From an uncultured virus (IMG/VR IMGVR_UViG_3300001528_000811) (lineage: Duplodnaviria > Heunggongvirae > Uroviricota > Caudoviricetes): a stretch of 64,000 nt of DNA. Below, piece by piece: positions 4,579-33,868 of the stretch. Made by a program: the position numbers and the translations under genes. The stretch lies in IMG/VR virus record IMGVR_UViG_3300001528_000811. One strand, given 5' to 3'. Every line of letters begins with the position of its first letter. Positions within the stretch are counted from its first letter, which is position 1. The notes under the pieces were generated by a model. The model saw nothing but the letters and a program-made list of their open reading frames with translations, did no database searches and was not told where the DNA came from.

Positions 4579-7500
4579 ATGAAAATGAAAAATTTGGAAT
4601 TTATTTTTAATAAGTTTTTACACTATATGTTAATAAGTTCTATATTTTTAAGTAATATAATATATAGTCCAAGTGTAGTAGAAGCAAGAACTAGTGTTAG
4701 TATTCCTACAGGAGTATGGCGTGATTATTATACAGATGAATGTCATCAACCTATATATTTATCTAAAGGCGATGATAAAAAAGAACATTTTTTCATGGAT
4801 ACAATTACATTTTGTCTTGCAAGTATAATTGGTTCAAATACTTGCGATTATTGTGAGGAAACATATTTTGATTATAAATGTACTTACATGTATGCAAAAA
4901 ATAAAATTGAAAAAATGCAGTATATAACTATAAAGAACTGTTCTAAAGAACAGTTAAAATGGGTAGGAAATGAATTATACGACCAAAGAAATATTTTAGT
5001 AGCTACTTTGAGAAATAGCTCATTTGAAAGAGCAAATTTTACATCTTATAGTCATCAAAATCCAAGTGAAGATAATAAATGTTGTTCAGAAGGACAAAAT
5101 CATGATGTTTATAATCACAGTGATTTATCTTTAGATTTTACAAGAGTGGCTTTTTCTTTTGATAGATTAAGTTTTAATATAGGATTTATTTATGAAGGTA
5201 CTTATAATTATTTAGAAGTATCTGATGACTATAAGGACTGTATAGAGTATAAAACTATTAATAGAGATGATTATAAAGTTTTTATACAACCTGAAACTTT
5301 AACTATTCAAGAGGAAGATTGTACAGTGTACTATGGTGACCAGATGCAATTAACAGTAGAAATGAAACCTGAAAATATAAATGCAGGTACTTATATAAAT
5401 TGGTCAAGTTCTAATGATAATGTAGCTTCTATAACTTCCACAGGTCTTGTATCTTTTTTAAACACTGGTGTGGCAACGATAATAGCCACTACAGATAATG
5501 AGATAAAAGATACAATTAAATTTATAGTAGTTCAACCTGATAGCGGTTCTGATGCGACAAATGTTGAAGAAATACAATTTCCTCAACCAAACTATTATGG
5601 ACAAGTTGGTTCACAAATTCAAATAACTCCAACTATATATCCAGAGAATGCAACAAATAAAAAAGTATATTGGTCATCATCTAATGAAGATGTTGCAACA
5701 GTAAATGAGTTCGGAATAGTTACAGCTTTAAAAGCTGGTTTAACAAATATAACAGCAGTATCTGATGATGGACAATATTCTGATGAATATAAATTAGAAG
5801 TTAAGAATAGAGTAGAAAATATTAATATAATAAATAAAGTTAATGAACTTAATTCTGGAGAAACTTATAAATTAGAAGTTAATCTTTATCCAGATAATGT
5901 AAAAGATAATACTTTAACTTATAATTCTTCTAATCCTGAAATTGCAACTATTTCAGATGAAGGTTTAATAACAACTTTAAAAAGAGGCGAAACTTTAATA
6001 TCCGTAATTAGTAATTGCAATTTAAATATAGAGGATGAATTCAATTTAACAGTAAATCAATTAGCAACTACTATAAATGTGGAAAAAGACTTAACTTTAA
6101 TAAAAGGAGAAATGTATAAGTTAAATCCTAAAGTATTACCTGAAGATGCAAATGTAAAAGATTTAATATTTGTATCAAGTAATCCAGAAATAGCAAAGGT
6201 TTCTAATGAAGGCTTAATAGAAGCAATATCTAAAGGAGAAACAACTTTAACAGTAACCACAAAGGATAATTTAATATATGAAATAATAAACATAAAAATT
6301 ATAATTTTACCAGAAAATTTAATAATAGAAGCACCAACAAAAATAGACAAAACTTATAATAAAACATATAAGCTAGGATTAAAATTTGAACCTGAATTAT
6401 GTGAAGAAGATACAATAAAATGGTCTTCATCAAACAATAACATAGCAACTATATCTAATGACGGTTTACTAACAATACTGAATAACGGTTTAGTTACTAT
6501 AACTGCAGTATCAGAAAAATATGATTTATATAATAAAGCAACAATAGAAATTTATACTTCAGCGGAAGGATTTGAAATAGATAGACCTGAGAAAATGTAT
6601 GATGATATGGAATATGATTGGACTTTAAATTTAATTCCAAAAACAACTTCAGAAGATACATTATATATTTTAATAATAAATAATGAAAAATATAATTTAA
6701 ACAAAAATACATTTAATATACATTTTGATAGAAAAGAAGCAGGGATTTATAATTTTAATGCAACTTTATTTACACAAGATTTAGCACCATTAGAAACAAT
6801 ATCTTTTGAGTATGAAATTCTTTCAAGAAAAAAAGAAACTAATATAGAAATATCCAATATAAAGCTTTCGGAAGATTTAATTTCTGACGAAAACGTATCT
6901 TTAATAAAAGAAGGTAACAATATAACAATAGCAATTCCTTCTGATAAAAATTTTAATATTGATGATTTAGAATTTGATATTCCTAAAGGAGCAAAGAAAA
7001 AAGTAATAAAAATAGATGATAATAATTATAAAATAATAATTATATCTAAAGATAATTCAACAGAACAGGAAATACTCATTAATGTGGCACACAAGAAATC
7101 TGATGATATTAATTTAATATCTGTTGTAATAGCTGGTATATCTGCAACATTATTTAATGATAATATTTCAGCAATATTACCTATAGATTATAAATTGCAA
7201 ACATCTGATTTCGAAATAATTTTAAGCGATAAAAAAGCTAATTATTTGATAACAGATGATTTTAAATATTTAATAGTAACAGCAGAAAGTGGTATAACAA
7301 AAACATATAATTTAAATTTAATAATACCTAAAGGAGATGCAAGGATAAAAACAATACAAGTTGGAGATAATTTTGCAATATTTAATGGAGAAAGTTATTA
7401 TATAAATTCTGAATATACAGAGGATATAAAAATAATAACAGTAGACCCAAATGCAAAAATAACTTTAACTTTAACAACTTCAGAACTAAATTATTTAATT

Positions 7501-8520
7501 TATGAATTTAAAATTGAATCTGGCCATGAAGTAAATACAGGTATTTTAAAGATAAAATTAAAAGGAGACAATCCTAACTATATTCCAATAGAGGATGAAA
7601 CTGATAACGAAGTAACTGATAATAAAAATAATGAAAAAGATATAATATCAGGAAGTTCATCTTCAAATAACAATTCTTCAAATAATAATTCTTCAAACAA
7701 AGATTTAATAATAGATAATATAAATAATATCAATACTAAAGAAAGTAACAATTTAGATTATATTTTAGTAAGTAAAGAAGATAAGAATAAATTAATGTCT
7801 ACAGCAGAAGATAATAAAGATTTAATAGTTAAAGATGATAAAATAGTTACAAGTAAGGATAATAAAGAAATAATAACTATCGAAGATTTTTTAACAAAAA
7901 ATATCAGGAAAAATGTATCAGATGATACTTTAATATCTTCAAGTAATAAATATACAGTAAAAGAAAATGATGACGGAACTTTAGATTTAATATTACCGGC
8001 GGAAGCACCTAGCAATGCACTTTCATCAGAAAATATATTTTATGATGAAGAAGTTAATAAATACTATCTATACATAGAAAATTTAGGTTTAATAGAATTA
8101 AACCCTCAAATGGTTTCAACAATGGTTATATCTGCTGAAAATAATATAGGGTATTTGGATAATAAGAAAATTTATATAAAAGATAAAGTTGAAATTATAG
8201 ATGATGAGTATTATTTACCAATGAGGCAGATACTTGAATATCTTGGAGCAGAAGTAGATTGGACACAAGATGAATTTAAGGCATCATTCAGATTAGATAA
8301 TAAATTAATAAATATTTATACAAATAATTTAACATCAGAGTATAAAGTAATAAATGAAAGAATATATACAACTTTAGATGAATTAATAAGTAGTTTCGAT
8401 TTAATATCTGATACAATAAGCAAGGATACAGAAAATAAATCTATAGAGATATTGAAAGATATCACATCAACAGTGTCAAATATTAAATTAGCTACAACTA
8501 TGAAATACACTTTAAATTAA
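4579..8520 (+). CDS. Secreted/surface protein: signal peptide, Cys-rich N-domain, ~5 Ig-like Big_2 repeats, beta-sandwich repeats, C-terminal copper-amine-oxidase-N-like domain
   Basis: Hydrophobic N-terminus ending VEA; repeats WSSSNDNVASI, WSSSNEDVATV, YNSSNPEIATI, FVSSNPEIAKV, WSSSNNNIATI; VTAESGITKTY; S/N linker; YLPMRQILEYLGAEVDW. Confidence 0.85.
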   Translation: MKMKNLEFIFNKFLHYMLISSIFLSNIIYSPSVVEARTSVSIPTGVWRDYYTDECHQPIYLSKGDDKKEHFFMDTITFCLASIIGSNTCDYCEETYFDYKCTYMYAKNKIEKMQYITIKNCSKEQLKWVGNELYDQRNILVATLRNSSFERANFTSYSHQNPSEDNKCCSEGQNHDVYNHSDLSLDFTRVAFSFDRLSFNIGFIYEGTYNYLEVSDDYKDCIEYKTINRDDYKVFIQPETLTIQEEDCTVYYGDQMQLTVEMKPENINAGTYINWSSSNDNVASITSTGLVSFLNTGVATIIATTDNEIKDTIKFIVVQPDSGSDATNVEEIQFPQPNYYGQVGSQIQITPTIYPENATNKKVYWSSSNEDVATVNEFGIVTALKAGLTNITAVSDDGQYSDEYKLEVKNRVENINIINKVNELNSGETYKLEVNLYPDNVKDNTLTYNSSNPEIATISDEGLITTLKRGETLISVISNCNLNIEDEFNLTVNQLATTINVEKDLTLIKGEMYKLNPKVLPEDANVKDLIFVSSNPEIAKVSNEGLIEAISKGETTLTVTTKDNLIYEIINIKIIILPENLIIEAPTKIDKTYNKTYKLGLKFEPELCEEDTIKWSSSNNNIATISNDGLLTILNNGLVTITAVSEKYDLYNKATIEIYTSAEGFEIDRPEKMYDDMEYDWTLNLIPKTTSEDTLYILIINNEKYNLNKNTFNIHFDRKEAGIYNFNATLFTQDLAPLETISFEYEILSRKKETNIEISNIKLSEDLISDENVSLIKEGNNITIAIPSDKNFNIDDLEFDIPKGAKKKVIKIDDNNYKIIIISKDNSTEQEILINVAHKKSDDINLISVVIAGISATLFNDNISAILPIDYKLQTSDFEIILSDKKANYLITDDFKYLIVTAESGITKTYNLNLIIPKGDARIKTIQVGDNFAIFNGESYYINSEYTEDIKIITVDPNAKITLTLTTSELNYLIYEFKIESGHEVNTGILKIKLKGDNPNYIPIEDETDNEVTDNKNNEKDIISGSSSSNNNSSNNNSSNKDLIIDNINNINTKESNNLDYILVSKEDKNKLMSTAEDNKDLIVKDDKIVTSKDNKEIITIEDFLTKNIRKNVSDDTLISSSNKYTVKENDDGTLDLILPAEAPSNALSSENIFYDEEVNKYYLYIENLGLIELNPQMVSTMVISAENNIGYLDNKKIYIKDKVEIIDDEYYLPMRQILEYLGAEVDWTQDEFKASFRLDNKLINIYTNNLTSEYKVINERIYTTLDELISSFDLISDTISKDTENKSIEILKDITSTVSNIKLATTMKYTLN

Positions 8521-8810
8521 TACAATTTAATTTTAACCATTTTAATTTTAATCAATTTAATTTCTATACAATTTAATTTTAACCATTTTAATTTTAATCA
8601 ATTTAATTTCTATACAATTTGATTTTAATACAATTTTAATTTTAATAAATTTTAATTTAACTAATTTGATTTTCACACAATTTAATTTTAACAAATTTTA
8701 ATTTAACTAATTTGATTTTCATACAATTTTAATTTAACAATTTTAATTTAACAATTTAATTTTAACAAATTTTAATTTTAACAAATTTTAATTTTCATAC
8801 AATTTTTAAC
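8521..8810. repeat. Degenerate 14-17-bp tandem repeat (consensus ~CAATTTAATTTTAA, about 18 units) with a 46-bp higher-order duplication
   Basis: TACAATTTAATTTTAACCATTTTAATTTTAATCAATTTAATTTCTA occurs exactly at 8521-8566 and 8567-8612; + strand almost devoid of G. Confidence 0.9.
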
Positions 8811-8828
8811 ACATTCAAATAATAAGAT

Positions 8829-9101
8829 AATAAATAAAAAAAATGATAATGTGCAATGAGCCTTATTATATTTTTTATTTATTTAAATATAAAATAAAAA
8901 TAAATTTATTATACAGTGAGCATTTTAAATACTATTTTTATTTATATATTTATTATGTTTAAGAGCAGTGAGCCTAAATATAATTAATCTTAAACTCAGT
9001 TATGTTTTAATTATTTACAATGAGTTTTTAATTAAAACATAATATTATTAAAATTAAGAGGAAATATTTTGTACAATGAGTAAAAATATTTCCTCTTAAT
9101 T
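8829..9101. ncRNA. Array of five stem-loops sharing loop motif RCARTGAGY (putative structured RNA or ssDNA element)
   Basis: CARTGAG at 8854, 8914, 8966, 9018, 9074, each centred in an inverted repeat of different sequence; two stems are perfect (14 and 19 bp). Confidence 0.6.
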
Positions 9102-9160
9102 AATATTTATATTAAAAAATATTAAAAAGATTATTTAATATTTTTTAATATAAATATTAA
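9100..9160. repeat. Perfect 27-bp inverted repeat, 7-nt loop
   Basis: TTAATATTTATATTAAAAAATATTAAA (9100-9126) / reverse complement at 9134-9160. Confidence 0.9.
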
Positions 9161-9227
9161 TAAAATAAATATATAAACTATAATATTTAATATAATAATT
9201 ATATATAATTTTGAAAGGAGTGATATT

Positions 9228-9401
9228 ATGGAATGTGAACTTTGTAAGCAGGATATAGATACTGATTATGAAAGACATTTTTATTGTCCACATTGTGACT
9301 CATATTTTTGTGAAGAAGAGGAGAATGAGATATCTGTAAGTGGAGGACTTTGTCCAATATGCTATAAAGCCTATGTCGATGAAGTTGATTGTAATATTTA
9401 A
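9228..9401 (+). CDS. 57-aa Cys-rich RING-like zinc-finger protein (missing from ORF track)
   Basis: GAAAGGAG SD; MECELCKQDIDTDYERHFYCPHCDSYFCEEEENEISVSGGLCPICYKAYVDEVDCNI. Confidence 0.8.
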   Translation: MECELCKQDIDTDYERHFYCPHCDSYFCEEEENEISVSGGLCPICYKAYVDEVDCNI

Positions 9402-9442: not shown

Positions 9443-9607
9443 ATGAAAATATTAAATTCAAAAACTAGTGAGATAAAAAATAAAATAATTGAAAAAATAT
9501 TGAAGAAAAGGTCAGAAGATTTGTATGATATAAAGACAGGACCTAGTTTAAACTTCTCATTAGAGCAAAATATTACTGGAGGATTTAATAATGGAAATAT
9601 TAGATAA
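9443..9607 (+). CDS. 54-aa hypothetical protein (missing from ORF track)
   Basis: AAGGGAG SD, MKILNSKTSEIKNKIIEKILKKRSEDLYDIK...; overlaps start of PilT-like gene. Confidence 0.5.
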   Translation: MKILNSKTSEIKNKIIEKILKKRSEDLYDIKTGPSLNFSLEQNITGGFNNGNIR

Positions 9608-10478
9608 ACTTCCAGAAATATTTAAAAATCTTTTGGATTTGCAATTGAAGGAAGGAGCTTCAGATTTACATCTTCAGAGTAATTCTGAAGCTTTTTTAAC
9701 TAAAGAGGGACAAATAGTTTCAACAGGAATATTTATAGATGAAAACACTTTATGGAAAGTTAAAGAAGTTTTAACATCAAATACAGTATATTATGGTTTA
9801 TTGATTGATAATAAATCTGTAGATTTTTCATTTGTTTATAATAGTGATTTTAGATTTAGAATATCTATTGTAGAAAGTTTTAGAGGTTTAAAATTTTCTA
9901 TAAGAAATAATAATTATAGAATTAGAACTTTTAAAGAGTTAGGTTTTAATCCTACAGTTTGGGAAAAACCTTTAAGACAAGATGGCGGTTTAATTTTAAT
10001 AGCCGGTTCAACAGGAAGTGGAAAAACCACAACAATGGCTTCTGCAATAAACGAATTAATTAAAAAAAAGAAATGTATAATAACTCTTGAAGACCCTGTA
10101 GAATATATTTATGATACAAATGAAACTTCAGTAACACAGAGAGAATTATATATAAATTTTAATAATTACGCAACAGCAATAAGAGATGCAATGCGTATGA
10201 AACCTGATGCAATAATAGTTAATGAATTACGAGATAAATCTACAATTGATGCAACTTTAGAAGCAGCAGAAACAGGGCATCTTGTAATAGGAACTGTTCA
10301 TACTAAAAATTTAGAGGCAATAGAAAATCGTTTAATTTTAACATTTCCTTCAGATGAGCAGCAATTAAAAAGAGAAATTTTGAAGGAAACTTTAATTTAT
10401 AAAGTTCATCAAAAATTAGTCTTTGATGAATTAACACAAAAATTAAATTTAATTTATACAGATAAAATATTTATTTAA
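9591..10478 (+). CDS. pilT: PilT/PilU-family traffic ATPase, C-terminally short
   Basis: GASDLHL, Walker A GSTGSGKTT, Asp box ITLEDPVEY, Walker B region PDAIIVNELRD, His box AAETGHLVIGTVHT. Confidence 0.85.
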   Translation: MEILDKLPEIFKNLLDLQLKEGASDLHLQSNSEAFLTKEGQIVSTGIFIDENTLWKVKEVLTSNTVYYGLLIDNKSVDFSFVYNSDFRFRISIVESFRGLKFSIRNNNYRIRTFKELGFNPTVWEKPLRQDGGLILIAGSTGSGKTTTMASAINELIKKKKCIITLEDPVEYIYDTNETSVTQRELYINFNNYATAIRDAMRMKPDAIIVNELRDKSTIDATLEAAETGHLVIGTVHTKNLEAIENRLILTFPSDEQQLKREILKETLIYKVHQKLVFDELTQKLNLIYTDKIFI

Positions 10479-10495: not shown

Positions 10496-11365
10496 ATGCT
10501 AGGAATATTTAATAATGAGTTAGAAGAAAATTTTAATAATTTAATGTTAAGACTTTATGAAAAAATAAATATAGAAACTGATTTATGTGTTTTTGGAGAT
10601 TTTAATTTTAAATTTCTTCCAGCTCTAAATATATTTCCTAATTTATATACAAATAAACATTTGAACGAATTTAATATAAACAATATTGAATTTAATAAAG
10701 ATTTAGTAATTATATCTAATAAAAACTTTGAAGAAGTTTTTAATAAAATTAAATATAATCTAAATCAAACAACATATATAAAGGTAAAACATATAACAGA
10801 AAATGTTGTAATTGATACACCAAAGTATATGAAGAATAAAAAAAATTTAATAAAGTATTATTCTTTTAATTGTTTGGGGACCTCTTTAATATCGGAGGAA
10901 ATAAATAAATATTTCACTAATATAAATTTAGATAATATAAACACAATAAGAATTTCTTCAAAAGAAACAAAGATAAAAATAAAATTAACAAGAACTTTAT
11001 ATGAAGAAGTTAAAACATTAGAAGAATTGAAAAAAAGATATTTAATAGGGAGAATAAATCCTATAAGAGAAATAATCATTCCAAGCGAAGAAGATTTTAT
11101 AATAAGTAAAGATATGAACTTAGTAACTGATTTATATTTATCTGATGATATAATATACTCAAATTTAAGTTTAGAAGATTTATTTAATAATATGGGTAAT
11201 TTTGAAAATATAGATAAAAATAATGAATTTAATAATTCAATTCGTCTTTTTTTAAATTATTTAATAATAAAAAATTTAACAATTATATATGTAGATAATT
11301 TAAAAGCTAAAAATGATTTAATATCTTTAGGCTTATCAAAAACAGTTGTAAAAGTAAAAAATTAG
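10496..11365 (+). CDS. Hypothetical protein
   Basis: 289-aa ORF, GGAGG SD. Confidence 0.75.
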   Translation: MLGIFNNELEENFNNLMLRLYEKINIETDLCVFGDFNFKFLPALNIFPNLYTNKHLNEFNINNIEFNKDLVIISNKNFEEVFNKIKYNLNQTTYIKVKHITENVVIDTPKYMKNKKNLIKYYSFNCLGTSLISEEINKYFTNINLDNINTIRISSKETKIKIKLTRTLYEEVKTLEELKKRYLIGRINPIREIIIPSEEDFIISKDMNLVTDLYLSDDIIYSNLSLEDLFNNMGNFENIDKNNEFNNSIRLFLNYLIIKNLTIIYVDNLKAKNDLISLGLSKTVVKVKN

Positions 11366-11377
11366 AGGAGGTTTAGT

Positions 11378-11971
11378 ATGAAAATAGATATTTTATTTTT
11401 AGGTGGTTATACAAATATAAAATTAATAAGAGATAGTTTTTATATTCCCTACTTTGATTATATATCTAAATCATCAGAACATTATTTGGACATACCAACA
11501 GTATTTGCAAGAACTGATAAAAAATATTCTATAGAACAAAGAATAGATATGAAAGAAGAGTATATATGTGTGGATGAAGAGAATTTCTTAGAAAGTATAA
11601 AAAGTTTTGCAAATTCATATAATATAAGATTTGCTTCTAAAGATAACTTCTTGGGTTTATATGATACTAAAGATAGATTAACTTTAACAGCACCGAACAT
11701 TGGTAAGCAATCTTTAGATTTAAGAATAGTTACAAATGTAGTAGCAAAAAATGAAGACCCGAGGAAAGATATAGATATATTATATATAATTGATAATTTG
11801 GAAAATTCTGAAATTGATACTTTTCCATTTTTAAATAAAATTTTTAATGTTATACAAAATAATTCTACAATAGGTATAATAACAAATAGATTAAGTTATC
11901 AAGAGAGGTGTAAAGAAAATTTCGATACTTCATCAAAAATTTATTTATATAATATGAAAGGACAGTTATAA
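11378..11971 (+). CDS. Hypothetical protein
   Basis: 197-aa ORF, GAGGAGG SD. Confidence 0.75.
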   Translation: MKIDILFLGGYTNIKLIRDSFYIPYFDYISKSSEHYLDIPTVFARTDKKYSIEQRIDMKEEYICVDEENFLESIKSFANSYNIRFASKDNFLGLYDTKDRLTLTAPNIGKQSLDLRIVTNVVAKNEDPRKDIDILYIIDNLENSEIDTFPFLNKIFNVIQNNSTIGIITNRLSYQERCKENFDTSSKIYLYNMKGQL

Positions 11972-11981
11972 AAATATAAAA

Positions 11982-12587
11982 ATGTTAATATATAAAATAA
12001 TTATTTTTGTAATTTTGGATAGTTTAAATTTTTATACTTTTAAGCAACATAATATAAAAAAAGTTTTAGATATAATCTATATTATTGTTCTTATTTGTAT
12101 AAAGGATTTAAGAAGTATAAATTATAAATATTGTTTATTAATATTTATAATTTATATATTAGTTAATTTAATATTGCTCATATCTGAGAAACTAAAAAAA
12201 GATAAAGTAAAAAGTAATGAACATACATTAAATTATTTAATAGAAGAAAATAGAAGATTAAAAATTATTTTAAGTTTATCAAAAGATGATTTATATAATT
12301 TACAATCTGAAATACAAAATTTGGAGTCAATATTAGTTTCAAAATCTAAAGAATTAAAATTAACGAAACAGGAATTAAATTTAATAAAAGATAGTAGAAA
12401 ATTATTTAATATTATAAGGTTTATCAATACAACATATATAAATGGAAATACTTTTAATAATCTGTCTACATTAGAATTGAAAATGTTGAAAATCGAATTA
12501 AAACGATTAAATAATAATTTTGGAAATAATAATGGATTAGAGGTAATCTTCAATAATTTAATGGAAGAAATAAATCGTTTATTATAA
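11982..12587 (+). CDS. Hypothetical membrane protein with C-terminal coiled coil
   Basis: N-terminal hydrophobic stretches (YCLLIFIIYILVNLILLI), heptad-like LQSEIQNLESIL region. Confidence 0.6.
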   Translation: MLIYKIIIFVILDSLNFYTFKQHNIKKVLDIIYIIVLICIKDLRSINYKYCLLIFIIYILVNLILLISEKLKKDKVKSNEHTLNYLIEENRRLKIILSLSKDDLYNLQSEIQNLESILVSKSKELKLTKQELNLIKDSRKLFNIIRFINTTYINGNTFNNLSTLELKMLKIELKRLNNNFGNNNGLEVIFNNLMEEINRLL

Positions 12588-12590
12588 TTT

Positions 12591-12660
12591 ATTTAATATT
12601 TAATATTTAATAATTAATATTTAATAATTAATATTTAATAATTAATATTTAATAAATATT
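12591..12660. repeat. 14-bp tandem repeat (TAATATTTAATAAT x3) containing the intergenic motif
   Basis: Direct reading of 12595-12655. Confidence 0.75.
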
Positions 12661-12681
12661 TTTCGATTGGAGAGATAATCT

Positions 12682-13233
12682 TTGAAAATTAAAGAATTGA
12701 CTTATAGCGAGAGTAATAATGATTTAAATAATTTAATAAAGATATTTCAAGCTTTAACTTTAAATTGTGAGGTTGGTGAAGAGTCACCTTATTTTGATAT
12801 ATTATCACAAATATGTTATGATTTAAGACCAAAGATATTAATTCATAGTTATACATTTCCTGAACTTATAACAATTTTAAAAACTATGACAGAAAGCAAA
12901 ATTACAGGTTATGAAATGATTACAAGTATATATGGAATAGGAGCATTAGATACATTTGATGTTGATTTAAAAAATATAATTAATATTTTTAAGAAAAAAA
13001 TAAAAAAATCTTTTAAGTACTTTTTTTATAGTGAATTGAAAGGTATACCAATTTTAATATCTTATAATCCTATGGTAAAGTATAAAGATTTAGTTAATTT
13101 TATTGTTAATGAAGATTTAAAATTTAAATGTAATTTTATACAAATAGGTAATGTTTCATTAAAAAGAAATTTGGATATAATACAAAGTCAGGAGGAAGGT
13201 AATTGTAAAATAATTACTTATAAAATAGAATGA
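12682..13233 (+). CDS. Hypothetical protein
   Basis: 183-aa ORF, TTG start after GGAG, overlaps next gene (ATGA). Confidence 0.65.
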   Translation: MKIKELTYSESNNDLNNLIKIFQALTLNCEVGEESPYFDILSQICYDLRPKILIHSYTFPELITILKTMTESKITGYEMITSIYGIGALDTFDVDLKNIINIFKKKIKKSFKYFFYSELKGIPILISYNPMVKYKDLVNFIVNEDLKFKCNFIQIGNVSLKRNLDIIQSQEEGNCKIITYKIE

Positions 13234-18663: not shown

Positions 18664-18817
18664 TAATATATTAAATATTTTAATATTTAATATTTAAATT
18701 TTATAAATATAGTATATAAAAATATTTAATATTTTTAATGTTATTTATTTTAGTAATATTATAAATTTATTATTAAATATAATTTTATTAATATCAAATA
18801 TAAGTGAGGTTATTCTG

Positions 18818-20467
18818 ATGAAAGTATTAAATGAGGAGGATATAGAATTAACATTATCTACTAACACTTTAGAGATATTGGATTTGGTATATAGTAGTTT
18901 AATAAATGAAGGAGATAAAATAAATTTAGTTGAATTAAACAAATTTTTTATTGTGGTAGAACAAAAAGAATTAAAAGGCTTTTATGCAATTTTTTATAAA
19001 TATATAAAACGCATAAAAGAATTAAATGCTTTAACAAATTCCACAAAAATAAAAATTTCTGATAAAGCATTTGAAAATTATTTAAATATAAATATAACAG
19101 CTTTTTTAAGTTCAGAAGAAATACAGTTAATTTCTGTTTTAAATGATATGGAAATAGATAATGTTATTAATATTCAAGATGATTTAATAATTAGAAAAAA
19201 AGCTTTTGATTACTGTATTAAAAAATATAAAATGATAAAGAGTTTAGGTGAAACCTCATCTAATTTAATTTTAAATTTAGATAATCTATTATCATGTGTT
19301 ATAAATGATTATTTAGAATATAGTATTTTTAAAAATGCAGAAATATTATCTGAAGGTACTAATCTAAAATCTTTAACTTTAATCGGATCTGAAGATAGTT
19401 TTAATTTTACAAAATTAATTTTGAATATTATAGAAGAAAAGAAAAATGATTATAATTTATTAGATGAAAATATATTAGATTTATCTAGTATAGAAAAATA
19501 TAGAGAAGCATCACAAAATGCAAATTTAAAAATGTTTAATATTTGTGAATATGGCTTCCCACCTATTGATAAAATAGCACATATGACTAATCAAGATATT
19601 ATAACTTTAGTTGCTTCAGAAGGTACTGGTAAAACAACTTATTTTGCAGCAACAGCAGCCAAGGAATTATTTGCAGGACGTTCAATAATATTTATGGCTG
19701 GTGAAACGGCAAAGTTAAAAATAGCAAATATGATTTTAAGTCATTTTATATATTTAAGAACATCAAAACCAAATATACCTGGAATGAGAGTATCTTGGTT
19801 AGAAATACAAAATAAATATGATAGTTTACCTGATACAATAAAAGCAGAAATAGATAGAGCTAAATATGATATATACGAAAATAAAAAGTTTGGATTTCCA
19901 ATAATAGTGGAAAGTTTTAAATATCAAACTTATATGCAAGAAGTATTAGATATAAAAAATTTACACCCAGATTATATTTGGGGTCATGTATTTGTAGACC
20001 ATATTGATGCTCTTGATAGAGATAATAGTCAAGGAGTAAGAAATTATTTTTTAAAAGATTCAAGAGATTTAATAAAAGAAATGTATAGACAGGCAATAAA
20101 GTTAAAAAATCATTATGGAATACCAACCATATTTTCAGCACACACTTCTTATGAAGCAGAGAAAGCTATAGTAGCTTCTAAGAAAACTGGAGTGCGTGTA
20201 GGAGCATCTTCATCTTCAACATCAAAAGATGTTGATGTTGAAATTCTATTTGAGACCAATGACGAGTTGTCAAAACATAATTTGATAAAAATTTCATTGA
20301 AAAAATTTAGAAATTATGATATAACTTTATTTGAACCTTTTGTGGTATTGAAAGAATTTGATGCTTGTTTGTTTACTTACTCTACTACATTGCAAGGAAT
20401 ACTTAATAATGATAATGAGAAAATGTTAGATATAAAAAATATAAAATCAGAAGAATTATTAGATTAG
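18818..20467 (+). CDS. dnaB: DnaB-like (SF4) replicative helicase, divergent
   Basis: LVASEGTGKTT, FMAGE, VFVDHIDAL, SAHT, DVDVEILF, KFRN in DnaB order. Confidence 0.75.
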   Translation: MKVLNEEDIELTLSTNTLEILDLVYSSLINEGDKINLVELNKFFIVVEQKELKGFYAIFYKYIKRIKELNALTNSTKIKISDKAFENYLNINITAFLSSEEIQLISVLNDMEIDNVINIQDDLIIRKKAFDYCIKKYKMIKSLGETSSNLILNLDNLLSCVINDYLEYSIFKNAEILSEGTNLKSLTLIGSEDSFNFTKLILNIIEEKKNDYNLLDENILDLSSIEKYREASQNANLKMFNICEYGFPPIDKIAHMTNQDIITLVASEGTGKTTYFAATAAKELFAGRSIIFMAGETAKLKIANMILSHFIYLRTSKPNIPGMRVSWLEIQNKYDSLPDTIKAEIDRAKYDIYENKKFGFPIIVESFKYQTYMQEVLDIKNLHPDYIWGHVFVDHIDALDRDNSQGVRNYFLKDSRDLIKEMYRQAIKLKNHYGIPTIFSAHTSYEAEKAIVASKKTGVRVGASSSSTSKDVDVEILFETNDELSKHNLIKISLKKFRNYDITLFEPFVVLKEFDACLFTYSTTLQGILNNDNEKMLDIKNIKSEELLD

Positions 20468-20478
20468 GAGGTAAATGT

Positions 20479-22218
20479 ATGGAATATTATTATGGAATAG
20501 ATTTAGGTACAACAAATTCTTGCATTTCAGTATATACATCTAAAGGCAAATCTAAAGTAATTCCATTGGACACAAAAGGTTCAACTACAATGCCTTCATG
20601 TGTAATGTTTAAGAATAAAAAGTTAATAGTTGGGAAAGAAGCATATTGTAAAAGGTTTGAAAAATTTTCTCAAAATGGTAATAAAACTGTGGGGATAGCT
20701 TGTTATTCTATAAAACGAAGAATAGGTGATTTAAGTGCTTCACATACTTTCATTGATGAAGAAACTGGAGAAATTATTGGCACTTATAATCCAGTTGAAA
20801 TATCATCAATGATTTTAACAGGCTTAATTGAAAAAGCATCTGCAACATATCCAAATATAAAAGGTTCTAAAGTAACTATTACTGTACCAGCTTCTTTCAA
20901 TAGTGAGCAAAGAGCTCAAACAAAAAAAGCTGGACAATTAGCCGGATTAAATGTAATAGATATAATAAATGAACCTACATCAGCATCACTTTGTTATACA
21001 AATGATAAATCTGAAACAATTTTAGTTTATGATTTAGGTGGAGGCACATTTGATGTTTCTTTATTAAAGATTGATGTTCCAAAAGTAGGAACATTTAATA
21101 TTCCAGAACTCGGTATAGATTTAACAGTAGATAAATCTAATGTAAAGGAGTATACTCAATTTAAAGTACTTGCATCTGAAGGTTCACCTAAATTAGGTGG
21201 TGATGATTTAGATGAATTAATGTTAGAAGAATTATTAAAACAGTCTGCAAAAGAGTTAAATATTTCTTTAAATAAATTTAAGAAATTAATATCTGAAGAA
21301 CAAATAGCAGAAAATATATTTAATATTGAGCAATTTAAAAAAATGAGTGGAGTTCAGTCAGTTAGTATATATTTTAAGCCTAATAAAATGCCAGAACATT
21401 TAACCCATTTAAATCTTGAAATCTATCAGAAGGCTTCCGAGATTTTATATGAAAGAACAACAAAATATGTAAAAGCTTGTATAAATAAAACAAATTTAAA
21501 AAACATTAAAGTTGATAAAATTGTTCTTGTGGGAGGCTCAACTAAAAATAATTATATTAGAAAATTCTTACAAAGAGATTTTCCTGATAGTCAATTAAAC
21601 TATGCAATAAATCCAGATGAGGCCGTAGGAGCAGGAGCATCTATTCAAACAGCAATAAAAACCGGAACTTTAAATAAAAGATTTATAGATATATCTCCAT
21701 ACACTATAGGCGTAGAGGTAGATGAGCTAGATGCTTTTGGAAATAAAAGAACAATTATAAAGCATTTATTTAAGAAGGGAGCATCTTTACCTTTAAAGAG
21801 TACGTATAAATTTGATTTAGAAAAAGATAAGGAATATTCAGGTATAAATGTTAATTTATATCAAGGAGATGCTATAATTCCAGAATTAAATATTTTTTTA
21901 GGCGAGATAACTTTAAGTGTAACAAAAGGAACACAATTTATTTATTTAATAACTGAGGTAGATGCTTCTGGCATATTAAAACTATCTGCAAAAGATGATA
22001 AAGGAAATATATCTTCAATATCTTTTGGTTCAATAAAAACAAATACAAATATAAACAAAGAATTAGAAAATATAAAAAATATTTTAATTTTAAAGACAAT
22101 AAAAAAAATTAAACAGAAAAATATAGCAATGACTGAAGAGTTATTTGATATAATAATGGATGCAAATAAAACATCAAATTTAGAAAAATTAAATAAGTAT
22201 ATGGAGAATTTAAAATAA
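20479..22218 (+). CDS. dnaK: Hsp70/DnaK-family chaperone
   Basis: GIDLGTTNS, VTITVPASF, INEPTSA, VYDLGGGTFDVS, LGGDDLD, LVGGST, NPDEAV. Confidence 0.95.
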   Translation: MEYYYGIDLGTTNSCISVYTSKGKSKVIPLDTKGSTTMPSCVMFKNKKLIVGKEAYCKRFEKFSQNGNKTVGIACYSIKRRIGDLSASHTFIDEETGEIIGTYNPVEISSMILTGLIEKASATYPNIKGSKVTITVPASFNSEQRAQTKKAGQLAGLNVIDIINEPTSASLCYTNDKSETILVYDLGGGTFDVSLLKIDVPKVGTFNIPELGIDLTVDKSNVKEYTQFKVLASEGSPKLGGDDLDELMLEELLKQSAKELNISLNKFKKLISEEQIAENIFNIEQFKKMSGVQSVSIYFKPNKMPEHLTHLNLEIYQKASEILYERTTKYVKACINKTNLKNIKVDKIVLVGGSTKNNYIRKFLQRDFPDSQLNYAINPDEAVGAGASIQTAIKTGTLNKRFIDISPYTIGVEVDELDAFGNKRTIIKHLFKKGASLPLKSTYKFDLEKDKEYSGINVNLYQGDAIIPELNIFLGEITLSVTKGTQFIYLITEVDASGILKLSAKDDKGNISSISFGSIKTNTNINKELENIKNILILKTIKKIKQKNIAMTEELFDIIMDANKTSNLEKLNKYMENLK

Positions 22219-22727
22219 TGATTTATAATAAACAAAGAGTAGAAAGTTTAATATATTATTTAAATTCATTACATATATCAGATATATTTAATGAATTTGA
22301 TTTAAAAATAGAAGGTAGGAAAGCATTGTGTCCTTTTCATGATGAAACTCGACCTTCTTTATTCGTATTGGAAACTGATATAGATAATGATAAATGGTTC
22401 TGTCAATCTTGTAGGAGGGGAGGAACGATATCAAATTTCATAGGAGAATATTATAAAATATTTTTAAATGCTTCTAATTTTTATGCAGCTTTGGATATAT
22501 ATTTGTATAAACATAAAGAATTATGGGAAATATTATCTTTTAAAACTTTAAGAGATTTTAATAATACAAAACAAGATATAAGTTTAAAAGAAGCATTAGA
22601 TAAATTTAATATGTATAAAGATTTAAATAAATCAAAACTTCATATAGATGTTAAATTATTACCAAATAAATATATATATAAAGATGTATTGGAATATTTA
22701 ATAAAGTTACAAAGAGGATGTAAGTGA
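22218..22727 (+). CDS. Stand-alone CHC2 zinc finger (DnaG primase zinc-binding domain), no TOPRIM domain
   Basis: LCPFHDETRPS...WFCQSCRRGG; only 169 aa. Confidence 0.85.
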   Translation: MIYNKQRVESLIYYLNSLHISDIFNEFDLKIEGRKALCPFHDETRPSLFVLETDIDNDKWFCQSCRRGGTISNFIGEYYKIFLNASNFYAALDIYLYKHKELWEILSFKTLRDFNNTKQDISLKEALDKFNMYKDLNKSKLHIDVKLLPNKYIYKDVLEYLIKLQRGCK

Positions 22728-23245
22728 TGGATAATACAACTCATATATTTAATAAAAAAATAAATGAAAATAAAAAATCAAGTATATTTAATACTAAAAT
22801 TTCTAATGAAGATGAATTAAGAAAATTTTTATTAAGAAGTAAAGATATAAAAAAATATAATTCAACTTATTATAGAGATAATCAAAAAAATTCAGAATTA
22901 AGTAATACAGAATTACGAAGATATACAAATAGATTTTATATAGATACAATTTCAGAAGACACAGATATAGATATACCTCAATTAAGGTATGATGAATATA
23001 TTCAAGAATTGTTAAAAGTGGTAAGGTCACAGAAAATTTTAACTAAGCATTTAACAAGATATTTTATGCCACAAAAAAATGGGTATATAATAACTTCAGT
23101 TGTAATACTAGATAAATACAAAGAAAGGCCTGTAATACTTTCAGAAATAATATATCAGAACAAAATATGTAAACAGATGTTTTATGATTTATATAATGTA
23201 GTAGATACAATACAGGATTGTAAAGATTTAAGTGTTAAAAATTAA
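22724..23245 (+). CDS. Hypothetical protein
   Basis: 173-aa ORF; N-terminus carries TTHIFN and SSIFN. Confidence 0.7.
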   Translation: MMDNTTHIFNKKINENKKSSIFNTKISNEDELRKFLLRSKDIKKYNSTYYRDNQKNSELSNTELRRYTNRFYIDTISEDTDIDIPQLRYDEYIQELLKVVRSQKILTKHLTRYFMPQKNGYIITSVVILDKYKERPVILSEIIYQNKICKQMFYDLYNVVDTIQDCKDLSVKN

Positions 23246-26478: not shown

Positions 26479-29400
26479 ATGGATAAATTATATAATATGT
26501 TTTTAAATGATTTATTAGAACCTAAAATAATAGAAGAATTTTTTCCAGTACCAAATAGAATAGATAGATTTATTATTTTAAGAGAAATTTATGAGAAATC
26601 ATATGTTTGTGATAAAATAGATTTTACATTAAATGATATAAATACAAATATAAATTTAAGAGTAACAATACAATTGGGAATATGTCCAAATAAAAAGGAT
26701 ACTTCATCTGTGGAATTTACTACTGTAGAACAATTAATAGTTACAGATTTTTTAAAAGTTCCTTCTTTAACTTCAAGAGGTATTTTAATGTCAGGACAGT
26801 TATACTTTACAAAATATTGTAATGAAATTGTAAAGGGTATAACATATCATGAAAATTCTGTAACAGAAGAGGAAAAAAATCTGATACAATTAAATTTAAG
26901 GTCCGATAATTATAGGAATATAAGTTTTAAAGTTTCTGATGATAAAATAATTTGTAAAAGAAAAAATAAATATACAAGTAAAGAAATGTCATTTGATTTT
27001 TATAAATTATTGAGAATATTTAATGAAAATGAAGCAGACAATTTTTTATCTGAGAATTCAGCAACGAGTATTTCAAATTATGATAAAAGTTCGATTTCTT
27101 ATGAAGATTTAATACAAGAATTTTTATCTTGGATAGGTAAAGATTATCAAACTTTAGATAATATAGTAAATAATACAAGAAAAGAGCAATATGTAAAAAA
27201 TGGTTTATATTTTAAGTTTGAGGAAGAAACTTTGAAAAATATGAGACATTTTTTAAGTTTTGAAAATAGAATTAAAGGTGCAGTTATCTGGGAAGATATA
27301 AATACAAAGATAGAAGAAGTGAATACTGAAATAATAAAAATTAATTTTAATAAAGGAAAAATCTTAAAATCTGAAGATTTAATATTATTAGATAAGTGCA
27401 AAGATATAACATCATTAATTGTAAAAATAAATAATAAAATATTCAGAGTTATTAAAAAACCAATAACAAATACTTTAGATATAAATATGTTAGCCAATAT
27501 ATTTAATATTATGGATACTTTAAGATATATAAAAAATATAGAAGCTAATGAGTCAAACTTTCTGTATCAAAGAGCTAGCACTTATTATTCTGTAATGATG
27601 AAATTCGTAGATGATAATGTATCAGAATATTCAAAAAAATTAAATAAGCATATTTATGATTGTGTAAAAAATTGCTATAATAGTTTAGAAAATTATCAAA
27701 AAAAAGTTATTGATGAAAATGTTGTATTTAATTGCTTATATGAAAATATGAGTAATCATCTTTTTTTAAAAGAAAGGATGCAAAAAGAATATAAATATCC
27801 TATAAAGTTTTTTGATAAATATAAAGATAATCCTGATATGTATAAATTAATATCTTTAGCAGATAATAGAAATTCTAGAATAGCATATGCAAATAAAAAT
27901 ATATTTATAAATCCATCAAAAGAAGTTTCTATAAAAGCTAAAGAAATTCAAGCGACACATATGTTTTTTTTATGTTCTATATCCGCTCCTGAGTCAGATA
28001 AAGCCGGAGCTACAAAGCATTTAACAGTAGGAACTTTTGTAGATAAATATGGAGTTTTTAGAAATTCTTTTGTTAATTTAATAACAGGAGAAACAGAATA
28101 TTTATCAGCTTTAGACATATATACAAAAAAAGTAGCTGTTGAAGATTTTGATAATAAGGTATCGGCAAAAGTTTTATATAGAGGAGAAATAATTGAAACA
28201 GAAGTATCTAAAATAGAGTATAAACCTAAGAGTTGGTCACAGATTAGTTCTATAAATATAGCATCTGGTATATGTGGAACTTTTAATAAATCACGTAGAC
28301 AATTAATGGAAAATAATGAATTAAATCAGACTTTAACTATATTAGGTGGAGAACCAACATCTTTAAATACCGGATTAGACTCGAAGTATTTACAAGATTA
28401 TTGCATTACTGTAAAAGATATTTTATTATATAATGAAATGGATTTAACAGTTCTTCCAGAGAATGTAGTTTTAATATTTAAATCTATAAAGGATATAACA
28501 AAATCGAATATAGATATAAAAAATAAACAAATTATAGAATATATATTTGAAATTAAAGAATTAATTGAAAATGAAAATATAGATTTAGATATGAATAATA
28601 TTATTGAAGTTGATACAAATGAAAAAGAATACTTGGAGGAACAATTTAATCCTATAAAAGGAAAAAGAATTTTAAAATATCCAATTATGAAAAATTATTT
28701 ACAAGCACAACAAAATATTACTTTAAAAATGGTAAATAAAAATATTTTTCATTTAAATGATATTGTATTTATACCTGAAGATGCAGAATATATGGAAGAA
28801 GAGCAGACACAAGTTTTTGAGGATATAGATACGAGTTCTAAACATTTAAGATTATCTATTGGCAAAAATGTGACAATAGCTTATATGAATTATGAAGGAT
28901 ATTGTTATGAAGATGGTATGGTTATAAGAGAAGGATTAGCTAATTCTTTAGGATTATCACATGTATATACAAAAACAGAAAGCTATGAATTAGAATTAAA
29001 TGAAGTATTTATAGCAAAAGAACCTTTAGGAACGAAAGTATACCCTGGGATGATTTTAGGTTCAATATTTAATAATGAAGGTGTGTTAATAAAAAATATA
29101 ATTGTTCCGAGAGACAAAGAAGGTATATTTAGTTTTTATGAATTAAAAAATAATATATTAACATTAACTATAACCGGTATTTATTTTGTTGAAGTAAGTT
29201 GTAAATTTGCAGGTTTCCACGGAAATAAATGTACAGTTTGTGCAATAATTCCAGATGATAAAATGCCTTTGGACCCTGACACTTTAATTCCTGTAGATAT
29301 TTGTTTAAATCCTTTGGGAATTACAACACGTGATAACATGGGGCAATTAATAGAAGGCAATTTAAATTTAATAGGTGAAAAAGATGCTATTGCATATAAA

Positions 29401-33711: not shown

Positions 33712-33753
33712 AAAAATACTCTTTTAATGTTTAGTATTAAAAGAGTATTTTTT
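33712..33753 (+). terminator. Intrinsic terminator after RNAP gene
   Basis: 17-bp perfect IR AAAAATACTCTTTTAAT / ATTAAAAGAGTATTTTT, 7-nt loop, ends in T run. Confidence 0.8.
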
Positions 33754-33868
33754 AATTATTAATATTTTTAAACAAGTATTTAATATTATTGATTAAATAT
33801 TTATTTAATATTTTTAGATTAAATATTTATTTAAAAATATTAATGAAATTACAAAAGGAGGATATTTA

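Follow-up and report, generated by a model that had tools for sequence, protein, structure and literature searches.

The element examined here is phage-like and very AT-rich (21% G+C), and the window, by which we mean the whole stretch of 64,000 nt that was analysed, contains one non-coding gap that exceeds all others, namely 707 nt against 305 nt for the next largest. This gap, which lies in a stretch where the G+C content is 12–14% (8400–9199), is bordered by a surface-type gene and holds, in order, a block of direct repeats, five hairpins that share a loop motif (H1–H5), and a sixth palindrome with a promoter-like motif (H6), after which a cluster of replication and transcription genes begins. 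The upstream flanking gene (4579..8520, + strand) encodes a large surface-type protein of 1313 aa that combines Ig-like repeats (Big_2, E 4.6e-59) with a C-terminal Cu_amine_oxidN1-type domain, and its PHROG matches are Ig-domain structural or tail proteins. The first gene 3' of the array (9228..9401, + strand) encodes a 57-aa protein with four CxxC pairs, a double zinc ribbon, which matches zinc-ribbon families at sub-threshold level only (best E 9e-4, under the Pfam cut-off); next come a 54-aa ORF and a PilT/VirB11-like (PilT/HerA-like) ATPase (9591–10478; T2SSE, E 1.4e-36). Together with this ATPase, the downstream cluster comprises an SNF2 helicase, a DnaB-like helicase, Hsp70, a primase zinc ribbon, an NAD ligase, and PolA, with a DnaC/IstB-like loader as a lead (Atlas features 0.95–0.97), and the ORFs at 10496–13233 matched no family. 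The element further encodes a GreA-like factor and a very divergent fused beta-beta' RNA polymerase, whose near-full-length relatives number only two (~50% identity) among the 21 proteins returned by the search. Searches of the neighbouring proteins with Pfam (E <= 1), NCBIfam, PADLOC, and the Atlas tied no RNA-binding protein, initiator, or nuclease to the array. The orphan proteins of the neighbourhood gave no alignment depth.

The direct repeats (8505..8805) amount to about 18 units of 13–17 bp (18.5 copies of the TTTAATTT(T)AAC type), constitute the top-scoring tandem repeat of the window (TRF score 314), and are themselves organized into 6.4 copies of a longer, 46-bp super-repeat. Taken as single-stranded sequence, this block is unstructured: its RNA fold has a z of +1.64, and 93 of 100 shuffles fold as well or better. 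The word ACAAT is found 11 times within 8500–9110, where 1.6 copies are expected, and is spaced at ~46 bp within the direct repeats; since this ACAAT/CAAT spacing is followed by the loop motif at 52–60 bp, the whole of 8505–9101 looks like one periodic array. At the other end of the gap, H6 (9096..9164) lacks the loop motif, its 31-nt arms are 97% complementary around a spacer of 7 nt, and it folds at -23.3 kcal/mol (z -8.8). The promoter-like motif ATTTAATATTT resides in its 3' arm (9133..9143, + strand, 95 nt before the ATG at 9228), with a one-mismatch copy on the - strand in the other arm, a 10-mer starting at 9126. Throughout the element ATTTAATATTT has 45 sites against 4.5 expected, 39 of which are on the + strand, mainly in gaps ahead of genes, and H6 belongs to a different class from H1–H5, that of palindromes built from the promoter motif, which are present in other gaps too. 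The first-pass annotation, which had described the five hairpins, left out the context most favourable to the option of an origin or control region, namely the 18 repeats, the promoter-bearing H6, and the replication cluster.

H1–H5 abut one another, with no genes in between, and have the tip alone in common. The strength of each RNA fold was expressed as a z value and a rank against 200 shuffles, and a genome-matched null was drawn from 12,704 windows of 61 nt outside the array region, of which 0.95% have an MFE of -13.5 kcal/mol or lower and none reaches -22.3. H1 (8829..8883, + strand; tip gCAATGAGc, motif at 8854) folds at -13.8 kcal/mol (z -4.9, 0/200 shuffles as good) through arms that are A-rich on the 5' side and T-rich on the 3' side, with two single-base bulges on the 5' side below the tip, one A.A mismatch, and one G.T pair. 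H2 (8884..8952, + strand; tip aCAGTGAGc, motif at 8914; -10.7 kcal/mol, z -2.8, 3/200) has an A.C mismatch beside the C-G closing pair and a long imperfect AT stem with internal loops, while H3 (8952..8984, + strand; tip gCAGTGAGc, motif at 8966; -6.9 kcal/mol, z -2.9, 1/200) has a short stem with two bulges on the 5' side and one G.T pair, shares the tip architecture of H1, and as DNA reaches only -2.8 kcal/mol (10/200). The perfect 14-bp stem of H4 (9000..9042, + strand; tip aCAATGAGt, motif at 9018; -13.5 kcal/mol, z -5.4, 0/200) carries a symmetric TTT/TTT internal loop below the tip, and the perfect 19-bp stem of H5 (9052..9101, + strand; tip aCAATGAGt, motif at 9074; -22.3 kcal/mol, z -8.3, 0/200) carries a single bulged G on its 5' side and a tip helix of 3 bp. 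In strength, H1, H4, and H5 stand well clear of the background of the window, whereas H2 and H3 are weak, their 61-nt energies (-6.1 and -7.2) being ordinary and equalled by 33% and 21% of background windows, respectively. The stems originally proposed hold up: the arms 9000–9013/9029–9042 (14 nt) and 9052–9070/9083–9101 (19 nt) are 100% complementary, and two imperfect upstream stems pair at 90% over 21 nt (8829–8849/8863–8883) and at 77% over 22 nt (8891–8912/8929–8950). In H1, H3, and H5 the tip module sits over a 5'-side bulge, and in H2 and H4 over an internal loop.

The motif CARTGAG was found just as first reported, with spacings of 60, 52, 52, and 56, always on the + strand and in the five contexts given above. 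Its 12 occurrences in the window (11 on the + strand, 1 on the -), five of which fall in the array, compare with a shuffle expectation of 5.5 +/- 2.4, and as 3 of 100 shuffles reach 12, the five copies in 227 bases represent a local cluster with no genome-wide excess. Every fold bears out that each copy occupies the tip of its own inverted repeat. The accompanying claim of a shared 9-nt loop survives only in part, in that the motif is indeed at the tip but does not form an open loop of 9 nt; it consists instead of a 2–3 bp tip helix and a pentaloop, ARTGA, which in all folds is closed by the pairing of the motif's C with its last G. The flanking R and Y bases pair as G-C in two hairpins, as A-U in two, and as A.C in one; in a set of five sequences this covariation of the tip pairs lacks significance, the same level being attained by 199 of 500 shuffles. 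Six of the seven core bases are invariant across the five copies, the sole variable base being A or G, and the nine tip bases include 5–6 G+C at H1–H3 and 3 at H4–H5.

The position of the motif can be quantified by asking how often a 7-mer is centred in a tip loop of at most 9 nt with at least 14 spanning pairs, which is the case at 5/5 array sites and at 6.3% of background positions. Among the + strand sites outside the array, two of six (8219, 23985) have this placement, in weak folds of ordinary energy (-6.4, -7.0); at 53288, 58156, and 59252 the tip loops that hold the motif are larger and have fewer pairs spanning them, and at 15263 it lies outside any tip loop. Allowing one mismatch yields 133 sites in the window, and outside the array only three of these cap a hairpin with an energy of -9 kcal/mol or lower. 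These sites, at 18484, 20908, and 60823, are all inside ORFs, and the first two, when folded, look incidental. AT-matched chance, which the first-pass annotation had named as a possible refutation, does not produce an array of this kind: the AT-flanked three-motif pattern has 3 matches in the window, against none in 100 shuffles. A coding role was likewise discarded: ORFs started in the loops run for 3–24 codons, have no ribosome-binding site, and share only Met/Val-Ser as a peptide.

That the tip is kept while the stems differ, as first proposed and now confirmed, points to selection on a single-stranded stem-loop. The alternative that the array has no dedicated function would have it arise at this locus alone, by the duplication in tandem of a palindromic unit within AT-rich DNA of low complexity, in which template switching keeps the arms complementary and the centres are alike by recent common descent only. 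Traces of such descent are visible in the similarity of H1 to H3 (74% over 31 nt) and of H4 to H5 (88% over 16 nt) and in the like starts of the H3 and H4 5' arms; AT-rich windows fold easily, and the scans of viral, metagenome, and genome collections turned up no analogue. We nevertheless hold this alternative to be improbable: stems have diverged past recognition while the core of the motif stays invariant and G+C-rich against an AT mutational background, which is the opposite of neutral duplicate decay, and the perfect 14- and 19-bp stems are unrelated in sequence.

The array is real and unusual in its repeated motif, in the tip position of that motif, in its unrelated stems, and in matching no known family. 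Rfam, which includes the IRE models, returned no match at gathering score for the whole window and none at E <= 10 for 8400–9300 on both strands. The view that this is not a CRISPR array was also upheld: such arrays consist of near-identical direct repeats of 24–48 nt with unique spacers, and here there is no long identical repeat, the units having 7–9 nt in common and a best identity of 74% over 31 nt. No Cas family is found with Pfam among the 48 ORFs of the window that were scanned, and the only PADLOC hits in the 16 neighbouring ORFs were weak ones of P-loop ATPase type, which fell on the PilT-like ATPase; a type IV CRISPR DinG/Csf4 helicase model was among them (E 0.0015), with no further link to Cas. 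In ToxI-like type III toxin-antitoxin systems, tandem near-identical RNA repeats are located directly upstream of a ToxN/AbiQ-type endoribonuclease gene; this identity was rejected, as the hairpin units are not near-identical and neither PADLOC (16 ORFs) nor Pfam detects ToxN/AbiQ.

Closer parallels are offered by RNAs in which only the loops are conserved. The CsrB/RsmZ sponge RNAs display several stem-loops with different stems and repeated GGA (ANGGA) loops, bind many copies of CsrA/RsmA, and end in a terminator. The array resembles them in presenting one loop motif on several different stems, and a terminal terminator would fit a transcript of the - strand; it differs in its loop, C-ARUGA-G without GGA, in the lack of an Rfam match, in its much longer stems, and in its phage-like host. 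The iron-responsive element (IRE) is defined by a hexaloop CAGUGN with a C1-G5 cross-loop pair and a 5' bulged C five pairs below, and five IREs occur in tandem in the transferrin-receptor 3' UTR. The likeness extends to five hairpins in an AU-rich non-coding stretch, variable stems, a 5'-side bulge, and the CAGUG with which the loops of H2 and H3 begin. Identity with the IRE was, however, rejected on the hexaloop, the closing pair, and the bulge, as well as on the Rfam result: three of the five loops have CAAUG, the C pairs with the seventh base, the would-be hexaloop is flanked by G.G or A.G, and the bulged base is U, A, or G and lies 2–3 pairs below the tip (H1, H3, H5), with internal loops in H2 and H4. 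A third comparison concerns ColE1 RNA I/RNA II, with its three kissing-hairpin loops that are mutually different. The array is likewise a row of hairpins with loops of the 7-nt class beside replication functions, the loops would be mutually complementary if both strands were transcribed, and the - strand loop starts with CUCA and so fits YUNR, which by a rough estimate happens ~40% of the time by chance; the five identical loops, unlike those of ColE1, suggest one external reader rather than cis-antisense pairing.

Our preferred reading, to which we give somewhat less than even confidence, is that the array is an RNA of several hairpins, all of which present the same loop to a single binding protein; its transcription, the strand used, the protein partner, and the regulatory outcome are what we infer beyond the observations above. 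H1–H5 would be a stem-loop family retained for its shape, with a common tip formed by a C-G-closed pentaloop A-R-U-G-A, a tip helix of 2–3 bp, and a bulge or internal loop above a long AU stem, and these tips, in single-stranded form, would be read by one sequence-specific partner. As part of a non-coding RNA or UTR, the five tips could engage a protein of the phage or the host, either in several copies or as one oligomer, and the array might act as a sponge or an operator in the manner of CsrB/RsmZ or the transferrin-receptor IREs. In favour of this RNA reading, comparatively G+C-rich tips are kept on five unrelated stems in a stretch of 12–14% G+C, where drift at 21% G+C should erase them, and all five motifs are at a tip, compared with the small background fraction reported above. 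The recurring layout of a tip above a bulge or internal loop counts on the same side, a tip module over a 5' bulge or internal loop being typical of protein-binding RNA hairpins, as does the restriction of the loop's one variable base to A or G. The bulges, G.U pairs, and internal loops of H1–H3 are tolerated by RNA and not by cruciform DNA, and H3 is more stable as RNA than as DNA, both of which favour RNA.

The choice of strand is less clear, for folding and G-U usage, by which the first-pass annotation had proposed to assign it, gave no preference: the summed RNA energies are -67.2 kcal/mol on the + strand and -64.3 on the -, and H2 favours the - strand by 4.8. This counts against the RNA reading, while the three G.U pairs on the + strand, against one on the -, count for it. 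On the + strand, the array would be the tail of the upstream gene's mRNA and its loops would read CARUGAG. No exact promoter-like motif is present on that strand between the upstream gene and H1, and the U-rich 3' arms of H1 and H2 could halt a + transcript ahead of H3–H5, both of which weigh against the RNA reading. On the - strand, an RNA of ~270 nt would begin in H6, at the promoter-like copy with one mismatch that its left arm contains, pass from H5 to H1, and stop at a U8 run after H1, with loops reading CUCAYUG; the order of promoter-like copy, five hairpins, and U-run is the layout of a small-RNA gene and is counted in its favour. Further points against the RNA reading are that the stability of H2 and H3 is matched by a third to a fifth of background windows, that stems of 19–25 bp exceed the need of protein-binding hairpins, that template switching in replication, by arm-to-arm copying, could keep DNA palindromes paired without selection at the RNA level, and that the tip pairs show no significant covariation. 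The 18 adjoining repeats and the position before the replication genes are, moreover, better explained by an element that acts at the DNA level.

The U-rich arms and the promoter motif also bear on two explanations in terms of transcription. The array might be a terminator or insulator block that stops transcription of the upstream gene, and possibly opposite transcription, before the replication-gene promoter, its G+C-containing tip being kept only as a folding nucleus in an AT-only stem; we give this a small chance. With A-rich 5' and T-rich 3' arms, H1 and H2 have the form of bidirectional intrinsic terminators, there is no other terminator-like hairpin from the stop codon at 8520 to H1, and elsewhere in the window a hairpin is directly followed by the promoter-like motif (e.g., 33712–33752 and 59646–59690). 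Intrinsic terminators have a G+C-rich stem with a T-run immediately behind it. A consensus scan of 8520–9227 nevertheless finds no terminator, although its requirement for 3 G-C pairs may not suit a sequence of 21% G+C; H3, H4, and H5 have no T-run after the stem, the other operon ends in the window consist of a single hairpin with an unrelated loop, and nucleation accounts for the C-G and R-Y pairs but not for the five conserved loop bases. The second explanation, which we consider very improbable, is modelled on coliphage N4, whose early region opens with a short series of DNA hairpins that serve as promoters and are recognized by their shape and a few loop bases. An injected polymerase would likewise read the present hairpins in extruded or single-stranded form and start on the first genes downstream. 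The array heads the first gene block in the orientation of the genes, its tips are conserved and its stem sequences are not, and the element has its own divergent RNA polymerase and GreA-like factor. N4 promoters, however, have stems of 5–7 bp, purine-rich loops of 3 nt, and a single-subunit polymerase, as opposed to stems of 10–25 bp, loops of 5 nt, and the fused beta-beta' enzyme of multisubunit type here, no single-subunit polymerase being seen in the window (many of its ORFs are unassigned, and ~15 kb of the 79,393-bp contig lie outside it). The gene after the array, furthermore, already bears the common promoter-like motif, and five promoters in 270 nt, each reading through the next hairpins, would be odd.

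The main rival to the RNA reading, unlikely on balance but much to be reckoned with, is that the array acts as DNA in a replication origin or origin-control region. The ~18 direct repeats would be iterons for an initiator, the AT-rich palindromes would melt or fold as ssDNA hairpins, the tip would be read by an initiator, a helicase loader or helicase, or a primase as a loading or priming signal, and the promoter palindrome H6 would tie the array to the expression of the replication genes. The setting speaks for it: the largest non-coding gap and the top tandem repeat of the window coincide directly ahead of the replication cluster with its loader lead, the direct repeats lie beside an AT-rich region (18.5 copies of 15–16 bp at 8505–8805, with 12–14% G+C), 8505–9101 resembles a single periodic array, and folding is equally good on both strands. 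Iteron origins such as lambda ori and those of the lactococcal theta replicons combine direct repeats, an AT-rich stretch, inverted repeats, and a replication-gene promoter; in the lactococcal plasmids the order runs from direct repeats to inverted repeats, to the promoter, and to the first gene of the replication operon, which is the layout seen here, and Hsp70 and the DnaC-like loader lead are nearby. We know of no origin type with five tandem hairpins of identical loop, and no iteron origin with a hairpin series sharing one conserved loop, and in this respect the array differs from them, as it does in its 18 repeats and their unusual 15.5-bp spacing, which does not keep step with the DNA helix. 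The initiator that binds iterons is usually encoded beside them, and no initiator family was recognized among the flanking ORFs, of which those at 10496–13233 match no family and several have no match at all; H1–H3 are too imperfect for cruciform extrusion, and H3 is marginal as ssDNA. GC skew is positive on either side of the array region without a switch, which argues only weakly against an origin because the genes are all on one strand.

A related comparison is with HUH origins (geminivirus/nanovirus and pMV158-type), in which iterons are found beside one nick-site stem-loop with an invariant loop sequence, and which depend on a Rep or relaxase with HUH and Y motifs. The array shares the adjacency of iterons and stem-loops with an invariant short loop, but it has five loops in tandem, and five nick sites would excise the DNA between them. 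The scan of 48 ORFs, some of which match no family, detected no Rep, HUH, or relaxase family, and PolA, a primase, and a helicase are encoded by the element itself.

The search for relatives covered both the array and its neighbouring genes. In viral contigs, the three-motif pattern occurs at no fewer than 118 loci, and among the matches listed none has a stem of at least 8 pairs around the motif, by a strict, ungapped score that misses H1 and H2 too; a complete scan with the R/Y flanks added gave 55 loci, which, ranked by folding, include no AT-rich hairpins with variable stems. Four of them that were read over their whole length (L132, L152, L173, L134) proved to be either coding sequence or simple direct repeats in tandem and were rejected as analogues, as were three metagenome matches to the AT-flanked pattern (L174, L176, and the satellite-like L175), which are direct repeats of one unit. 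The AT-flanked pattern has no match in genome contigs or viral contigs, and the exact H5 sequence has none in viral contigs; as the pattern scans need the exact motif, relatives with a changed loop would be missed. With blastn, 8400–9300 has no match in phage records. By way of the proteins, phage records were searched by tblastn with the RNA polymerase, the ATPase, and PolA, and plasmid records with the RNA polymerase; the matches were distant only (<= 37%) and largely to ordinary cellular-type genes. Alignment of the RNA polymerase identified 79 distant loci in viral contigs (mostly 21–31%, at most 47% identity over the best segment), none of which has three motifs within 200 nt. With the flanking ATPase as query, 8, 200, and 92 pattern matches were obtained in viral, metagenome, and genome contigs, respectively, and none was confirmed. 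The close relatives of this protein number only two (P0002 and P0003, 65–71% identity). Full-text searches of the literature by element type and by motif brought up nothing relevant.

The array has the look of several docking sites that serve a single putative binding partner. Hairpin arrays in which only the loop is conserved serve cells and viruses as multivalent docking sites, as in CsrB/RsmZ, the IRE cluster, and the packaging signals of RNA phages, and to our knowledge none has been described for a large DNA phage. The present one, with a loop motif that matches no curated RNA family, lies at the boundary of two gene blocks in an almost unknown element. Should it be an RNA sponge or operator, it would bring a new RNA-protein pair and a new means of timing the phage programme; should it mark an origin, hairpin loops would become a recognition element added to iteron origins; and on either reading the 9-nt tip with its natural stem variants offers a compact, testable handle on the biology of an uncultured lineage. 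A more specific proposal, which is possible though less likely than not, is a new class of phage-borne multivalent decoy RNA, in which just five stem-loops would display a new recognition tip, a C-G-closed A-R-U-G-A pentaloop above a 5' bulge, and so titrate a protein of the host or the phage, or assemble it, at the structural/replication switch. Each of the + strand loops presents a start codon (AUG or GUG) in context, with AG behind it, and the C-U-C-A-U stretch of the initiator-tRNA anticodon loop is complementary to this sequence, so that the array could mimic initiation sites. In a bolder version of the decoy proposal, suggested by this complementarity of sequence, the array could sequester initiator tRNA or 30S initiation complexes.

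The five hairpins H1-H5 (8829..9101) form a genuine set of stem-loops that is not random, is unique to date and has been selected for a common tip. A motif search confirmed the five CARTGAG sites of the first-pass annotation (8854, 8914, 8966, 9018 and 9074) and their spacing, and inverted-repeat searches and folds place every one of them, as had been proposed, at the tip of a hairpin formed by its own inverted repeat. The common unit consists of a pentaloop A-R-T-G-A closed by a C-G pair, an R-Y pair beneath it (G-C in H1 and H3, A-U in H4 and H5, A.C in H2), a 5'-side bulge (H1, H3, H5) or internal loop (H2, H4) below that, and, at the base, an AT-rich stem whose sequence is unrelated from one hairpin to the next, in keeping with the original description of differing stems. 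In folding energy, H1, H4 and H5 stand out as exceptional from the shuffles as well as from a null taken from the window, and H2 and H3 do not; what sets all five apart is a rare 7-mer, containing G+C, that occupies the very tip in every one of them, where 6.3% of background positions in the window satisfy the tip criterion. Shuffling, suggested at first pass as a check on chance origin, came out in the array's favour, with 3 matches to the AT-flanked three-motif pattern in the window vs 0 in 100 shuffles, and folding of 8815-9215 gives z -9.9 for the + strand and z -11.2 for the - strand. Covariation at the tip pair within the locus is suggestive, not significant.

The array occupies a 707-nt stretch, larger than any other non-coding gap in the window, between the genes for an Ig-repeat protein (4579..8520, +; 1313 aa) and a 57-aa protein (9228..9401, +). 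A terminator or insulator block is an explanation we consider improbable. The gap opens with direct repeats (8505-8805), about 18 in number and 13-17 bp long, organised as a 46-bp super-repeat. They set in within the final 15 nt of the gene upstream, constitute the window's strongest tandem repeat, are less structured as a single strand than shuffles (z +1.64) and are iteron- or centromere-like. Through these repeats ACAAT returns every ~46 bp, a series that carries on in the hairpin tips, there at a spacing of 52-60 bp; therefore 8505-9101 may form a single periodic array. Located 3' of H5, the sixth palindrome, H6 (9096..9164), is near-perfect, with 31-bp arms and without the loop motif; its 3' arm contains ATTTAATATTT, and its other arm carries, on the - strand, a copy with one mismatch. 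Since palindromes built from this motif recur in other gaps, H6 is placed in a different class from H1-H5.

ATTTAATATTT, whose wider consensus is AATATTTAATATTT, is found at 45 sites in the window (among others at 9133-9143, 12591-12608, 18685-18734, 33803-33813, 51480-51525, 56072-56207 and 59437-59687), 39 of which are on the + strand, vs an expectation of 4.5 sites. The sites lie mostly in gaps ahead of genes, 28-170 nt 5' of start codons, often in tandem or within palindromes, and the motif probably serves the fused beta-beta' RNA polymerase that the element encodes (26479-33696, 2405 aa), as its promoter or as a regulator site. That H1-H5 would themselves act as N4-like hairpin promoters is very unlikely. 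Microsatellite-like arrays in several intergenic gaps (12590-12655, 51479-51527, 59492-59645 and 56118-56229; units of TATTTAA in 7-9 copies, 17 bp in 5.6 copies and 35 bp in 2.6 copies) are all made of promoter-like motif copies that overlap one another.

Stems that differ and yet pair are not enough to prove selection at the RNA level, because template switching can keep DNA palindromes paired; a functionless palindromic duplication is, at the same time, an improbable account of the array. Our leading reading, held tentatively and at less than an even chance, is a multi-hairpin RNA whose hairpins would all present the same loop to a single binding protein: H1-H3, made imperfect by bulges and wobble pairs, would not form cruciforms, the DNA fold of H3 is marginal, the layout of tip over bulge recurs, and the - strand, with a promoter-like copy, H5 to H1 and then a U8 run, resembles a small-RNA gene. 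As to strand, folding favours neither clearly: the folds contain three G.U pairs on + and one on -, the summed RNA energies are -67.2 (+) vs -64.3 (-) kcal/mol, and H2 folds better on the - strand. Single-stranded DNA hairpins within an iteron-type origin or control region are a rather doubtful but substantial alternative, favoured by the adjoining direct repeats and the periodic ACAAT series spanning both halves, by the extreme AT-richness of the stretch, by the position of the array directly ahead of replication genes, and by there being no exact promoter-like motif 5' of H1 on the + strand. The little probability that is left falls to other explanations.

The array works like known multivalent hairpin arrays and is a member of none of the families tested. 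The expectation that it would belong to no known RNA family, and that it is not a CRISPR array, was borne out: Rfam gives no match to the array region even at E <= 10, and long shared repeats are absent, as are cas genes among the 48 window ORFs scanned. A ToxI-type antitoxin array was rejected because the repeats are not near-identical and no ToxN/AbiQ was found among the 16 neighbouring ORFs or in the Pfam scans; an IRE cluster, which the array resembles through CAGUG in two of its loops, was rejected because loop register, bulge position and covariance models all fail. A coding reading was likewise dismissed, as the loop-started ORFs have 3-24 codons, without a ribosome-binding site, and their peptides have nothing in common beyond Met/Val-Ser.

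The window has a G+C content of 17-28%, carries all real-looking ORFs of at least 100 aa on the + strand, and contains no tRNA or Rfam family. Besides the fused RNA polymerase, the element's recognised genes include two separate family-A DNA polymerases (36937-40734, 1265 aa, and 60771-62543, 590 aa), a separate RNase T-like exonuclease (50864-51451), a NAD ligase, a SNF2 helicase, a GreA-like factor, PilT/VirB11-like and FtsK-like ATPases, and a putative DnaC/IstB-like loader assigned from Atlas features alone. Among the window genes none was recognised as coding for a capsid, portal or terminase protein, and for that reason the element is described as phage-like and not as a proven phage. 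An Hsp70 gene (20479-22218) lies between the genes for a DnaB-like helicase and a primase zinc ribbon (both within 18818-23245), a position that suggests, by analogy, a chaperone dedicated to replication-complex remodelling, the role of DnaK in lambda and iteron plasmids. A strong local hairpin within its coding sequence (20904-20918, tip C-AAAGA-G, -18.7 kcal/mol over 73 nt) is judged incidental to the protein code. The 57-aa protein (9228-9401), encoded by the first gene 3' of the array, has four CxxC pairs; its matches are all sub-threshold, some of them to families named for zinc-ribbon RNA-binding proteins (E 9e-4 and 0.07), and it is a speculative candidate for the protein that would bind the tips.

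By sequence comparison the element is an orphan lineage. Its PilT/VirB11-like ATPase has two relatives (65-71% identity), and the near-full-length relatives of its fused RNA polymerase are two proteins only (~50% identity), with a handful of more distant fused polymerases of 2500-3400 aa, some bearing intein domains. The lineage appears to be very thinly sampled. No related locus was found by protein-anchored searches of three collections (viral, metagenome and genome contigs) or by BLAST against phage and plasmid records, and none of 79 loci with distant polymerases has a motif cluster. Only ordinary tandem direct repeats were seen among the at least 118 loci matched by a motif-array scan, the 55 loci of a second, complete scan, and the three metagenome loci (genome 0, viral 0) matched by the AT-flanked pattern. 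One locus from the last scan, spanning a 1222-bp metagenome contig (L175, 1-1222), is a satellite, rich in AT, in which direct repeats of 22-24 bp, each able to form a small hairpin with the tip C-AATGA-G, are interleaved with a second, ~50-bp inverted module; it has the tip sequence in common with H1-H5 but consists simply of one unit repeated in tandem, and probably has no relation to them.
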